From Patescibacteria group bacterium (GTDB taxonomy: Bacteria > Patescibacteriota > Patescibacteriia > Magasanikbacterales > JBBTQS01), in contig JBBTQS010000001.1 in the NCBI GenBank assembly GCA_038065555.1, positions 322,741 to 361,750 on the forward strand: a stretch of DNA of 39,010 nucleotides, in the 5' to 3' direction. How positions within the stretch are numbered: position 1 is the stretch's first letter; every line of letters starts with the position of its first letter. Below the pieces are notes generated by a model. The model was not told the DNA's origin. It ran no database searches and saw nothing but the letters and a program-made list of their open reading frames with translations. Below are positions 3,317 to 39,010 of the stretch, one piece after another. The translations under genes and the position numbers were made by a program.

Positions 3317-3468
3317 ACCTAAATAACAGTTGGGGGTGGGTGGAACGGGGTACGACATACTCCGCCCTTCGGGTCGGAGTTGTCTCGTACTCGCCTCCGT
3401 GCCCCTCGCATCGGGGCACTCGGCTCCGTAAGCCCCCTTATCCACCCACCCCCAACTGTTATTTAGGT
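3317..3468. repeat. 152-bp element bounded by perfect 28-bp inverted repeats (MITE/REPIN-like)
   Basis: acctaaataacagttgggggtgggtgga (3317-3344) is the exact reverse complement of 3441-3468; internal hairpins include a cTTCGg loop. Confidence 0.8.
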
Positions 3469-35528: not shown

Positions 35529-36406
35529 ACACGTTTTTTCTCTACCACGCGCACTTTGGCGCTGCGTGCACGAGGGTTCTCGAGCACTTCGTCGCGCGTT
35601 GGTTCGATTGGTTTCTTCGTAATCACATTCACATCTGGGTGGATGGAGAAGCAACGCTTCACAATGCGATCCTCGCCCGAATGGAATGTGATGACAGCGA
35701 GTCGCCCACCTGGCGCCAAAATATTGATAGCACCCAAGAGTCCTTCTTGGAGCGCACCGAATTCGTCATTTGCAGCGATACGCAACGCCTGGAATACGCG
35801 CGTTGCTGGATGAATCTTGCCACGAGGTCCACGAGTTACTCGCATGATCACGCGTACGAGATCTTGCGTGGTAGCAATTGGATTCTTGTGGCGCTCGCCA
35901 ACAATGGCACGAGCAATATTCATTGCGTTCTTCTCATCAGCGTACCGAGAGAAGAGCACAGCCAACTCTTGTGGCGATCGCGTTGCGAGAATATCTGCAG
36001 CAGTTTCTGTGCCCGAAAGACCAGCATCAAACCGCATATCCAGCGGCTCATCCCCTTCGAACGAAAATCCGCGACCTCGTTCGTGGAACTGCGGAGTCGA
36101 CCACCCGAGATCGAGCAGCACTGCATCTACTTTTTCGTTGAGCACGTCTTCGACAACTGCCTGAATGTTGCGAAATGATTCGCGAACAAAGGCAACGCGT
36201 GATCCATACTCAGCGAGATAGTGCTTGCTGCGCAAAATCGCTTCAGGGTCTGCGTCGATTCCAATGAGTCTTCCTCGCGGCGCTGTTGCCGCCAGGATAA
36301 TCTCCGCATGCCCAGCATCGCCCAGTGTTCCGTCCACGACGGTAGCATTGGGCGAGAGCTGCAATGCGGTGAGCACCTCTTGTCGCAACACAGGAATATG
36401 GCGCAT
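35525..36406 (-). CDS. rsmH: 16S rRNA m4C1402 methyltransferase
   Basis: HIPVL, DGTLGDAGH, RGFSF..DEPLDMR, HPATRVFQALRI, FHSGEDRIVK, NPRARSAK. Confidence 0.97.
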   Translation of the reverse strand: MRHIPVLRQEVLTALQLSPNATVVDGTLGDAGHAEIILAATAPRGRLIGIDADPEAILRSKHYLAEYGSRVAFVRESFRNIQAVVEDVLNEKVDAVLLDLGWSTPQFHERGRGFSFEGDEPLDMRFDAGLSGTETAADILATRSPQELAVLFSRYADEKNAMNIARAIVGERHKNPIATTQDLVRVIMRVTRGPRGKIHPATRVFQALRIAANDEFGALQEGLLGAINILAPGGRLAVITFHSGEDRIVKRCFSIHPDVNVITKKPIEPTRDEVLENPRARSAKVRVVEKKRV

Positions 36407-36409
36407 AGA

Positions 36410-36850
36410 CTATGCGATTCCCAGATTCCCGAGCTGTTCGGCGATCGAAGCCGAATCTTTTTCTGTCGCGCGCTTGTACGTTTCCCAGGCAGTCTTGTCC
36501 CAGAGCTCGAGACGGTCGTAGAGTCCTGCGACCACTGTCTCGCGCGTGAGCGTAGCAAACGTGCGCAAATATTCCGGAAGCAGGATACGACCCTGGCTGT
36601 CCAATCGCAGTTCCATAGCGCCCGCAAGCATGAGACGGGCGAAGGCACGCGAATGCGCCTGGTTCATCGGGAGGTTCGCGAGTTGCCGCGCGAGCGCTTC
36701 CCAACGCTTCCGTGTGTAGACAAAGAGACACGCATCAATGCCACGCGTCACGACGAGCCCCGCACGAAACGCTGCGCGAAATGAGCCAGGTATTGCTACT
36801 CGGCCCTTTTCGTCCATCGTGTGCTGATACTCCCCTATGAACATGGACAT
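36410..36850 (-). CDS. mraZ: transcriptional regulator MraZ
   Basis: MFIGEYQHTMDEKGRVAIP, LDSQGRILLP, RLELW. Confidence 0.97.
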   Translation of the reverse strand: MSMFIGEYQHTMDEKGRVAIPGSFRAAFRAGLVVTRGIDACLFVYTRKRWEALARQLANLPMNQAHSRAFARLMLAGAMELRLDSQGRILLPEYLRTFATLTRETVVAGLYDRLELWDKTAWETYKRATEKDSASIAEQLGNLGIA

Positions 36851-36870
36851 AGATTGTGAGTTCCGTGGTT

Positions 36871-36938
36871 CCCCACTTCACCCCACTTTGTTACACTCTG
36901 CACGTATTCTATCCCACACCACCCACTCCCGCAACCAC
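36871..36938 (-). promoter_or_regulatory. mraZ promoter with MraZ-box direct repeats
   Basis: GTGGG(G) repeats at 36871, 36881, 36913 and 36922 (pairs 9-10 nt apart); TTGCGG-17-TAGAAT. Confidence 0.75.
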
Positions 36939-36964
36939 TCCTGTGCATAAGTCATATACAAAAT

Positions 36965-36990
36965 CACCACGCCCTGAGGAGGGCGTGGTG
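36965..36990 (-). terminator. terminator after the lipoprotein gene
   Basis: caccacgccct/agggcgtggtg 11-bp stem; atttt follows on the minus strand. Confidence 0.7.
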
Positions 36991-37006
36991 CGAACACGAG
37001 AGCAAA

Positions 37007-37438
37007 CTAGCGAGCGCTCACGGTTCCAAGCAACGACTTGAACTCTGTCTCACACCGAACAAACCCCGCTGGGTTGTCCAATGCCATGTGTACGTCAGTC
37101 TCCAGAAGATGCGCATCCATGCGAACTGGATTATTGTTGTCCTTGTAGAAAGTCAGATTAAATCCGTGATCACCGATCTTTTGTGTTTCGGTTGTTGATT
37201 TCCAACTACGACCGACGGTCTTGTTATCTTGCGCGTAGAGATAGATCAGGCATTCGCCATCCGTGAGTACAGGAGCAGAGCCACGCTCCTCGTGTCTGTA
37301 ATTCTCTGGAATACGAACGTGCCACGCGTCACCAATAGCTACTGAGCCAGCTGGGACAGTAGAAGTCTCTGTTGCACCACAACCAGCGCCTACAAGTGCG
37401 AGTGTCGCGATCAGGGCAACTTTCCAATGATTTTGCAT
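37007..37438 (-). CDS. lipoprotein of unknown function
   Basis: Lipobox LALVGAGC. Confidence 0.8.
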   Translation of the reverse strand: MQNHWKVALIATLALVGAGCGATETSTVPAGSVAIGDAWHVRIPENYRHEERGSAPVLTDGECLIYLYAQDNKTVGRSWKSTTETQKIGDHGFNLTFYKDNNNPVRMDAHLLETDVHMALDNPAGFVRCETEFKSLLGTVSAR

Positions 37439-37450
37439 AGCTGTGTTGCG

Positions 37451-38710
37451 TTATGTTCCGAACTGCCCACGACTACGGCGGGCTCTATGGAATTGTATCG
37501 CGAATCGGTGTGATTCGTCACGTGCTGCCAGCAATATCTGCAAATACATGCGCGCTTGTCGCGCGAGCAATGCTCCGCCGCCGATTTGGAACACTTCGGC
37601 CTTTTTTCTGGTTGGTCCTTTTGCAATTCCGATGATAGGCGTAGTGATTCCTTGCGAAGTGAGAACTTCGTGCACACGATTCACCTGCGGCTTGCCTCCG
37701 TCAATCAAGAAGAGGTCTGGCATGGGCCATTCTGCGTGCGAAATGCGGCGAGTGATGACTTCGGCCATTGATGCCACGTCGTTACTCCCCTGCACGGTCT
37801 TGATTTTGAACTTACGGTAGTCAGACTTCTTTGCTTGTCCACCTTCGAAAACGATCATTGATGCAACGGAGTACTGACCCGCGGTGTTGCTGATGTCATA
37901 CCCTTCAACACGACCGAGAATTGGATTTGATTCGCCCCACGAATCGTAGCTGCGCTGAATGAGTGCGATATCCTGAATATGATCGAGCGCTGCAAGTTGG
38001 TCCCGAACCATCGCAGCTTCTTCATAGCGTTGCGCCTTCGAGAGCACTTCCAGCTTGCGTCGCCACTGTCGCACGAGCATATCCTTCTTGCCAGAGAAGA
38101 ATAGTAACAATGGTCGCAAATAATCCCGACGATACTGCAGCGGTGTCACCGCACCAATGCACACCCCAGGACATTTCTGAATTTGATAGTAAAAACATGC
38201 TCGCGCCGCGCCAGGCTTGCACGTTGCATACGGAAAAATATCTCGCAAAATCTTGAGCGAAGTCTCAATCAACCGAACCGTGCGAAACGGCCCGAACACT
38301 GCGCGAAACTTCTTGCGAATCACTGCGGAATCATCGAACCAGTTGAGCCCAAGATCATGTCCGCGGATTATTTCGAGACGTGGATACGCATCACGCGTCA
38401 CCACCAAATACGCGAAGCTCTTGTTGTCGCGCAACATCACGTTGTAGCGCGGCTGATGCTCACGAATCAGATTCGCTTCGAGGAAGACCGACTCGATGAT
38501 CGTTGGCGTCACGAGCGTCTCAATCGACGCAATTTCATGAATCATCGCTTCAATCGGTCGAGTCACTGTTCGATTCCCAACAAAGTACGATCGCACACGA
38601 TCATGCAACGACGTTGCGCGACCAATATAAATAATCTCACCAGCCGCATTGCGGTAGGTGTAGATGCCGGGTTGATCTGGAAGTGATTTGATTTGGTCAG
38701 CAAAATTCAT
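37451..38710 (-). CDS. uvrC: excinuclease ABC subunit C, short form
   Basis: GIY-YIG (PGIYTY..IIYIGRA), Cys cluster, YEEAAMVRDQ UVR motif, EGYDISN, LIDGGKPQ, RDESHRFA. Confidence 0.92.
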   Translation of the reverse strand: MNFADQIKSLPDQPGIYTYRNAAGEIIYIGRATSLHDRVRSYFVGNRTVTRPIEAMIHEIASIETLVTPTIIESVFLEANLIREHQPRYNVMLRDNKSFAYLVVTRDAYPRLEIIRGHDLGLNWFDDSAVIRKKFRAVFGPFRTVRLIETSLKILRDIFPYATCKPGAARACFYYQIQKCPGVCIGAVTPLQYRRDYLRPLLLFFSGKKDMLVRQWRRKLEVLSKAQRYEEAAMVRDQLAALDHIQDIALIQRSYDSWGESNPILGRVEGYDISNTAGQYSVASMIVFEGGQAKKSDYRKFKIKTVQGSNDVASMAEVITRRISHAEWPMPDLFLIDGGKPQVNRVHEVLTSQGITTPIIGIAKGPTRKKAEVFQIGGGALLARQARMYLQILLAARDESHRFAIQFHRARRSRGQFGT

Positions 38711-38736
38711 ACATTCACTGTAACACACGCACAACT

Positions 38737-39010
38737 ATGTAACCCGCCCTGCGGATATAGCCTGCCGGCTGGCCTCCGATGGCCCCCAGCGTCAGCACCC
38801 ACAGGACGATGCGTGTGTAGTTGAAAAGGTTACGTTGAGTGAGCGCCAGGTGCTGCGGGTACCTATGGAGGAGACTCACGGAGAACGGTCGGCCAGCTGA
38901 ATCCGCCGCAAGGCGTGAAGTATTGTCCGACCGATCGAGTGCGAGACGGCCATTCCCGGTGAGGGAATGGAACGTCGTGCTCCGAAATAGGTATCTGCAG
39001 CGCCTGGTAT
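38737..39010 (+). ncRNA. unassigned large structured RNA, possibly cut by the window edge
   Basis: 21-bp stem 38846-38866/38987-39007 with 3 G-U pairs; GCAA tetraloop; second domain closed by atgtaacc/ggttacgt. Confidence 0.6.

Follow-up and report, generated by a model that had tools for sequence, protein, structure and literature searches.

The spacer between uvrA and uvrC in this Patescibacteria genome holds one intact and one decayed, inverted copy of a structured palindromic element, and not a single large RNA. An earlier note, made from the letters alone, had read positions 38737 to 39010 as one large multi-domain non-coding RNA; the second of its domains is one of 24 copies of a repeat family in this genome, and the first is a decayed copy in inverted orientation. 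The genome (G000) comprises 907,835 bp in 6 contigs and is 98.8% complete. The window, by which we mean the whole analysed stretch of 39,010 nucleotides, is C1:322741-361750; positions given without a contig are those of the window. Its relevant features are the following.

37451..38710, minus strand: uvrC coding sequence, from the ORF listing (ATG start at 38710, product beginning MNFADQIK)
38711..39010, and on to the equivalent of 39014, no strand: uvrA-uvrC spacer, 304 nt in total, an insertion by comparison with relatives
38719..38790, minus strand: decayed inverted copy, retaining the 5' half of the core without the 3' half; the bulk of the former "domain 1"
38835..38866 (confident for 38846-38866), plus strand: 5' arm of the copy-specific closing stem, from the fold and a pair check
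38867..38984, plus strand: conserved 118-nt core, by covariance models R1 (121 bits, E=4.2e-27) and R2 (114.5 bits)
38870-38875/38977-38983, plus strand: core helix P1, from the alignment and pair counts, as are P2 to P4
38877-38879/38939-38941, plus strand: core helix P2
38883-38892/38927-38936, plus strand: core helix P3, with an apical CGCC-GCAA-GGCG hairpin at 38904-38915
38945-38957/38963-38976, plus strand: core helix P4, with a GGUGA loop
38985..39010 (confident for 38987-39007), plus strand: 3' arm of the closing stem, with weak outer pairing to the uvrA stop just past the window
3346..3440, minus strand: second, shortened copy of the family (R1, 49.8 bits, E=2.9e-9)

The uvrA-uvrC spacer and the structure within it

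The start of uvrC was fixed by the uvrC of a sister species (G001), which is 91% identical and begins MQFAEQIK. In the 1.5 kb read past the window edge, the first gene met is uvrA, also a minus-strand gene; no RT, IscB/TnpB or other partner gene came to light. The uvrA stop codon falls at the equivalent of 39015-39017, about 8 nt beyond the end of the stem's 3' arm, so that the structure does not run on past the window as had been thought possible. Its placement as divergent from uvrC was correct but incomplete: since uvrA and uvrC both lie on the minus strand, a plus-strand RNA would also converge on the uvrA-uvrC transcript and be antisense to it. Simple scans gave no sigma-70-like promoter on either strand of this spacer and no terminator within it. 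The window copy likewise shows no GC-rich hairpin with a U-tract directly behind it, as an intrinsic terminator would have; its stem is followed by attcaatt. Uvr-related observations from the sister species are also of note: there 2 nt separate the stop of uvrA from the start of uvrC (~1490-1505 of L028), which implies translational coupling that the insertion has broken in G000, where uvrC has no obvious Shine-Dalgarno sequence.

All the helices read earlier from the letters exist where they had been placed, including the inner motifs ggag/ctcc, actc/gagt, cggtcgg/ccgaccg, cgcc-GCAA-ggcg, gacg/cgtc and ccattccc-ggtga-gggaatgg. The 21-bp closing helix (38846-38866/38987-39007) has 18 Watson-Crick pairs, 3 G-U pairs and no mismatches, and the helix 38737-38744/38828-38835 has 7 Watson-Crick pairs and 1 G-U. 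The whole stem that closes the intact unit is put at 21-32 bp. Folding of 38737-39010 on the plus strand reproduced both "domains" at -129.4 kcal/mol (z = -5.81, with none of 200 shuffles as good); the fold of the reverse strand is also strong (-121.7 kcal/mol, z = -6.52). Within the core, P1 encloses two branches, one consisting of P2 and P3 with a small purine-rich internal loop and the apical hairpin, the other of P4.

The copy in the former "domain 1" was recognised from a match of 38740-38787 on the minus strand to positions 4-54 of the core profile (nhmmer, E=1.1e-4). It is called decayed because the covariance model, run with its filters off, gave it only 5.0 bits (E=0.19). The intact copy was among the 21 training sequences of R1, and its R1 match is therefore partly by construction; independent blastn and nhmmer matches place it in the same family. 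The shortened copy at 3346-3440 has a 95-nt core and perfect arms of about 29 bp, and is located upstream of both flanking ORFs, one of which is read leftward and the other rightward.

A repeat family with a covarying core and copy-specific stems

A first search of the genome with 38600-39010 gave about 10 further places matching the inner part of domain 2, and a sensitive blastn and profile search raised this to more than 20 copies. R1, which was built from an alignment (A1) of 21 full copies from G000, finds 24; R2 is a broader model. The 21 full copies align at 74% mean column identity and about 28 core positions are invariant within the genome. Each core in G000 is enclosed in a stem of its own, 16-45 bp long, and even between the closest pair of cores (92% identical) the stems are unrelated. 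A new stem comes with each new copy. The stem sequences were found nowhere else in the genome, and an origin of the stems from other places in it was rejected on this ground.

One site gives a hint of how a stem may arise. At the copy behind tgt (G000:C1:515661-515868, L005 1457-1664) the gene-side arm spans the last five codons and the stop of the gene (SWQKS*), and the far arm is an inverted copy of it, which creates a spurious reverse ORF also ending in SWQKS. From this single case we infer that the adjacent flank, copied in inverted orientation, supplies part of the closing stem. A short motif outside the stems was also considered. The exact sequence TTGTCAAC is present 37-64 nt upstream of the core in 3 of the 24 copies (C1:423218+, C2:46142-, C1:326086-), where about 0.1 would be expected, and with up to 2 mismatches in 9 of the 24. 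It was not accepted as a part of the element, being the reverse complement of the -35 box of a promoter that points outward.

The pairing of the core is well supported by covariation. RNAalifold found compensatory changes in 18 of 30 predicted pairs. In A1, 90.9% of the cells are paired, compared with 75.7% in shuffled alignments (none of 500 as high) and 34-46% in slid controls. An alignment of 38 copies from 5 genomes, which was fitted to the model, gave 94.5% against 71.7% (again none of 500 shuffles as high), with slid controls at 31-45%. In this same model-fitted alignment 30 of 35 core pairs have changes on both sides.

The preference for the plus strand, drawn at first from the G-U pairs of the one closing helix, holds throughout the family. 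Among the mismatches in the 24 independent closing stems, 38 are G-T and 5 are A-C, with 12 others (binomial p=2.5e-7). The plus orientation gives the more stable fold in 53 of 61 copies over all genomes, with a mean gain of 7.8 kcal/mol. Two core positions are conserved as G-U, one with GU in 24 copies and AU in 12, the other with GU in 20, GC in 12 and AU in 5; in the core without these two positions G-U and A-C number 29 and 20, too even to favour a strand. A GNRA apical loop can be read from the alignment in 13 of 21 copies. The asymmetry of the stems, the stabler plus folds, the conserved G-U positions and the GNRA loops together extend the strand argument from the window copy to the family. 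Selection on pairing is strand-specific and favours the plus orientation. The claim of selection at the RNA level stands as far as it concerns a single, plus-oriented strand; the strand under selection may be RNA or possibly single-stranded DNA. Alternatively, a skewed copying mechanism could have left the G-T mispairs behind, on the strand in which the stem was formed.

Insertion sites, turnover and distribution

The copies abut tRNA and protein genes with their 3' side turned to the gene's 3' end. The neighbour on the 3' side is convergent in 17 of the 24 copies in G000, and in 10 of the 11 copies that are unpaired. In other genomes, for which ORF calls are crude, the neighbour is convergent in 25 cases and co-directional in 11, and none was called in 2. 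The distance from core to stop codon is typically 13-50 nt, such that the arm begins at or over the stop codon, and directly behind 6 of 42 tRNA genes an arm begins, on the strand opposite to the gene. Divergent genes flank 4 of the 24 copies, with none reading in. Seven pairs of copies less than 1 kb apart occur in G000, the decayed pair of the window included, and all are arranged minus-then-plus with their 5' sides facing; five more minus-then-plus pairs were seen in G013 and G198, and in G198 the stems of a pair may be as little as ~10 nt apart. One of the G000 pairs (C1:422237/423218, divergent copies 864 nt apart) brackets a 225-aa ORF on the minus strand (G000:C1:422470-423147, L003 751-1428). 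This ORF has no Pfam match, and could be cargo or related to the element.

None of the 24 upstream regions reaches 9 of 12 matches to a sigma-70-type promoter, and their mean score is no better than that of the control side. The lack of a promoter before any copy, together with the ~10-nt gap between paired stems, makes independent small RNA genes unlikely. A candidate outward promoter inside the core was dropped, since its spacing of ~20 nt, judged by eye, is wrong. An A-tract in the 5' arm with a T-tract in the 3' arm was seen by eye in only about a third of the G000 stems, and is absent from the window copy.

Comparison with relatives identifies several of the copies as insertions. The uvrA-uvrC spacer is 2 nt in the sister species, 18 nt in G002 and ~125 nt, with a simple hairpin, in G005, as against 304 nt in G000. 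With a spacer of just 2 nt in G001, the element that separates the two genes in G000 is an insertion. At the C2:21441/21659 pair, G001 has instead ~30 unrelated nucleotides between two conserved promoters. The tgt copy is also missing from G001, where 7 nt separate the tgt stop (tail SWLGGV*) from the -35 box of the gene that follows. At both of these sites the extra material in G000 is the entire hairpin, stem included. Insertion of the core into the loop of a pre-existing terminator was considered and rejected for uvrA-uvrC, where the G001 spacer is 2 nt, and for C2:21441/21659 and tgt, where G001 has no stem. At C2:17581/17852, G001 holds a short remnant resembling the 3' end of the core, and some of the differences between the two genomes are thus losses. 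A uvrC-based scan of genome contigs yielded no further informative uvrA-uvrC junctions; the closest named relatives by uvrC in that scan were Candidatus Moraniibacteriota, at only 34-36% identity.

The two sister species differ sharply in copy number (24 in G000 and 7 in G001), and copies at the same place resemble each other less than copies within one genome do. Both genomes have copies behind the same four tRNA genes (Gly(ccc), Arg(tcg), Arg(ccg) and Arg(tct)). The cores at these sites are 36-53% identical between the species, and 65-84% identical to other copies in their own genome. The stems at tRNA-Gly(ccc) differ at several positions between the species, with perfect pairing in each (16 of 16, 18 of 18), those at tRNA-Arg(tct) are unrelated, and the Arg(ccg) copy of G001 is without its stem. 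This points to concerted evolution or to repeated targeting and re-insertion at the same tRNA ends, and either way the family is dynamic.

A strain ~95% identical to G000, represented by two assemblies of RNA libraries, shows change on a shorter scale. The element has 4 differences in 200 nt, compared with 75 in 1585 nt of uvrC. In this strain 1517 other letters replace 38685-38817, a segment of 133 nt that contains the decayed copy and the first uvrC codons, and the adjoining intact copy is 98-99% conserved. Contigs from these libraries span uvrC and the copy; such contigs give neither strand, ends nor level of a transcript, and carry-over of DNA is possible.

R1 matched 5 of 41 relatives, with G000 counted. 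Among 150 other genomes of the order it matched 4, namely the sister species plus, from another family, 3 of its 7 genomes. For R2 the samples were again of 150 other genomes: in the class 10 had matches, at most 12 copies in any one of them, and in the phylum 4 had matches, at most 7 copies. These surveys are samples searched with strict Infernal filters, and absence from the counts means not found in the genomes searched. The architecture of a core with its own stem is kept in all copies inspected from other genomes. The element is thus sporadic across the Patescibacteria sampled. A metagenome scan with the core pattern, in a collection from which close relatives may be missing, gave 15 stretches, none of them real by the covariance model (best 18 bits).

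Two loci in these other genomes have peculiarities of their own. In G198, two identical 83-nt short variants, whose stems are identical as well, bracket a comEC-like gene (Pfam Competence, E=3e-44) in inverse orientation (L095 2683-2765(-) and 4294-4376(+)); the same 83-nt variant is found on two other contigs. In G239, two 46-bit matches fall inside one open frame of 825 aa in GC-rich DNA (L097 2229-2338 and 3645-3754), and either the frame is spurious or the motif is coding.

Possible origins and roles of the element

The element has no match among described families in the searches made. Rfam 15 gave none at E<=1 on either strand of 36000-39010, whether to RNase P, tmRNA, SRP, 6S, group II, HEARO, IS605-orfB, retron, ribozymes or others, which upholds the earlier description of the structure as an undescribed one; four copy-bearing loci in other genomes gave none at the gathering score. 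The listings and abstracts searched hold no description of such an element in CPR. Nor did G000 give a match to RVT_1, Y1_Tnp (PF01797), a TnpB/Cas12f zinc-ribbon, rve, DDE_Tnp_1 or an IS110 transposase, the six families that the search covered, each of which was found in control genomes.

Known palindromic repeats, compared here by their general features, resemble the element in part. REP/BIME sequences and REPINs are likewise multi-copy, intergenic and palindromic, often occur as inverted pairs behind genes or inside operons, form hairpins in transcripts and have no coding capacity of their own; in enterobacteria and pseudomonads REP hairpins in transcripts affect mRNA ends. REPs are, however, 20-40 nt long with a conserved stem and are mobilised by a RAYT (Y1) protein, whereas here a 118-nt covarying three-branch core has a separate stem in each copy and no Y1 protein was found; this comparison is of features and not of sequences. 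The Correia/NEMIS, ERIC/IRU, RUP and Rickettsia palindromic elements are closer in size (100-200 nt) and also form long fold-back RNA by or between genes, with patchy, lineage-specific expansion. These MITE-like repeats have conserved terminal inverted repeats and usually target-site duplications, unlike the present family, in which conservation is confined to the centre and each copy has termini of its own, partly flank-derived; terminal inverted repeats shared between copies, as in a MITE, were looked for in G000, and the stems differ in every copy. With unconserved termini, no RAYT or transposase found and a covarying multi-helix core, the element fits neither the REP/REPIN nor the MITE definition.

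For the hairpin-forming repeats of organelle genomes we know of no conserved multi-helix core with covariation. According to one account (PMC2800124), such repeats, for example in sponge mitochondria, invade intergenic spacers, often near tRNA genes, and to that extent are similar to the element, although the hosts differ. Bidirectional intrinsic terminators resemble about a third of the G000 copies, which have an A-tract and a T-tract around a GC-rich stem right after stop codons. They differ in that here a 118-nt structured insert replaces the loop, and that many copies, the window one included, have no U-tract.

We favour, with confidence a little better than even, a mobile structured palindromic element of gene ends, which inserts behind tRNA and protein genes, gains a new stem on insertion and persists as a selected hairpin acting in cis. 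It would spread by copy-insertion at gene ends, with a fresh closing stem formed in part as an inverted copy of the flank at the target. The product would be a long RNA hairpin at the gene boundary that may stop or insulate transcription entering from behind, or else may define or protect RNA ends, in the manner of REP/BIME-type repeats. A block to transcription entering the gene from behind is the preferred form of this proposal, given that selection acts on the strand antisense to the gene that the element abuts. Such transcription might come from divergent firing of a downstream promoter, a behaviour known from bidirectional bacterial promoters. In the sense transcript, the element as its reverse complement would likewise fold into a strong hairpin, at the 3' end or between cistrons. 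Having no U-tract, the uvrA-uvrC copy is probably an intercistronic feature of the transcript; it would stop antisense transcription on the plus strand and let the operon be read on.

Several observations count against this gene-end reading. The selected plus strand is mostly antisense to the abutting gene, so that the RNA of the upstream gene would carry the weaker, reverse-complement fold, and no promoter for a plus-strand transcript was found. A plain hairpin function does not account for the ~28 invariant core positions, nor for a junction that is kept across the phylum. The tract signature is confined to about a third of the stems, 4 of the 24 copies lie between divergent genes, and the remnant at one G001 site suggests a loss there and not a gain in G000.

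The same data were weighed against three other origins. A purely selfish, MITE- or REPIN-like DNA, whose core is the recognition site of a mobilising enzyme (one yet to be recognised or one supplied in trans) and whose fold is kept for copying, with no function for the host, would explain the difference between 24 and 7 copies in sister species and the patchy occurrence (10 of 150 genomes in the class, 4 of 150 in the phylum), and it suits the identical inverted copies, stems too, that flank comEC in G198. The low identity of the tRNA-site orthologues (36-53%, against 65-84% within a genome) also fits turnover or repeated targeting. This explanation is unlikely, though by no means negligible: none of the six reverse transcriptase and transposase families was found in a 98.8% complete genome, the unconserved termini are the opposite of a transposon with terminal inverted repeats, the 38 G-T against 5 A-C mismatches in stems unique to each copy imply selection at each site after insertion, and between strains the copy is better conserved than the flanking uvrC. 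A family of independently expressed plus-strand small RNAs of ~180 nt, with the long stem serving processing or stability (e.g. by RNase III) and the core binding a protein, we consider rather improbable. Strand asymmetry, GNRA loops, a conserved purine-rich junction and the tail-to-tail placement typical of small RNA genes would all be expected of it; yet no promoter-like site precedes any of the 24 copies or occurs in the uvrA-uvrC spacer, divergent pairs leave only ~10-40 nt between stems, and 24 paralogues with unrelated stems are hard to square with an RNA acting in trans.

The earlier note had also suggested the RNA part of an RNA-guided or retroelement system with its protein just outside the window; this would be an omega RNA, a retron ncRNA or a bridge RNA, belonging to a nuclease, a transposon or a retroelement. 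Nothing speaks for it beyond the overall appearance of a large structured RNA at the window edge, and it is most improbable, as the next gene is uvrA, no reverse transcriptase, TnpB-type or IS110 gene was found in the genome, HEARO, IS605-orfB, retron and group II gave no Rfam match at E<=1, and the variable part is a self-paired stem and not a free guide. A more speculative possibility, to which we give only a slim chance, is that the core is an active module of RNA or single-stranded DNA, either a self-cleaving or self-ligating ribozyme or a handle for a host nuclease or recombinase, which drives mobility independent of a transposase, homes to the 3' ends of tRNA and protein genes, acquires a new flank-derived stem and replaces old copies. 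If true, it would account at once for the failure to find a transposase, for selection on pairing confined to one strand, for termini that differ from copy to copy and for positional orthologues that resemble each other less than do copies in a single genome. The evidence for a self-cleaving ribozyme is indirect, namely a conserved junction amid variable, covarying stems, and known ribozyme models gave no match.

The gene-end element that we favour matters for several reasons. To our knowledge, the non-coding biology of Patescibacteria is almost unexplored. The genomes are very small, and it is therefore unlikely that 24 copies of ~180 nt (~0.5% of the genome) are tolerated for nothing. The family inverts the usual logic of bacterial palindromic repeats, in that the centre is conserved and covaries like a functional RNA and the ends are new at each site, and it offers a testable model for the birth of palindromic repeats at gene ends. 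R2 can be used to annotate hundreds of puzzling "structured RNAs" in CPR genomes. In the locus studied here, an insertion has broken the tight uvrA-uvrC coupling of relatives, and for organisms with very short intergenic spacers the element is a candidate cis-regulatory or insulating RNA structure.
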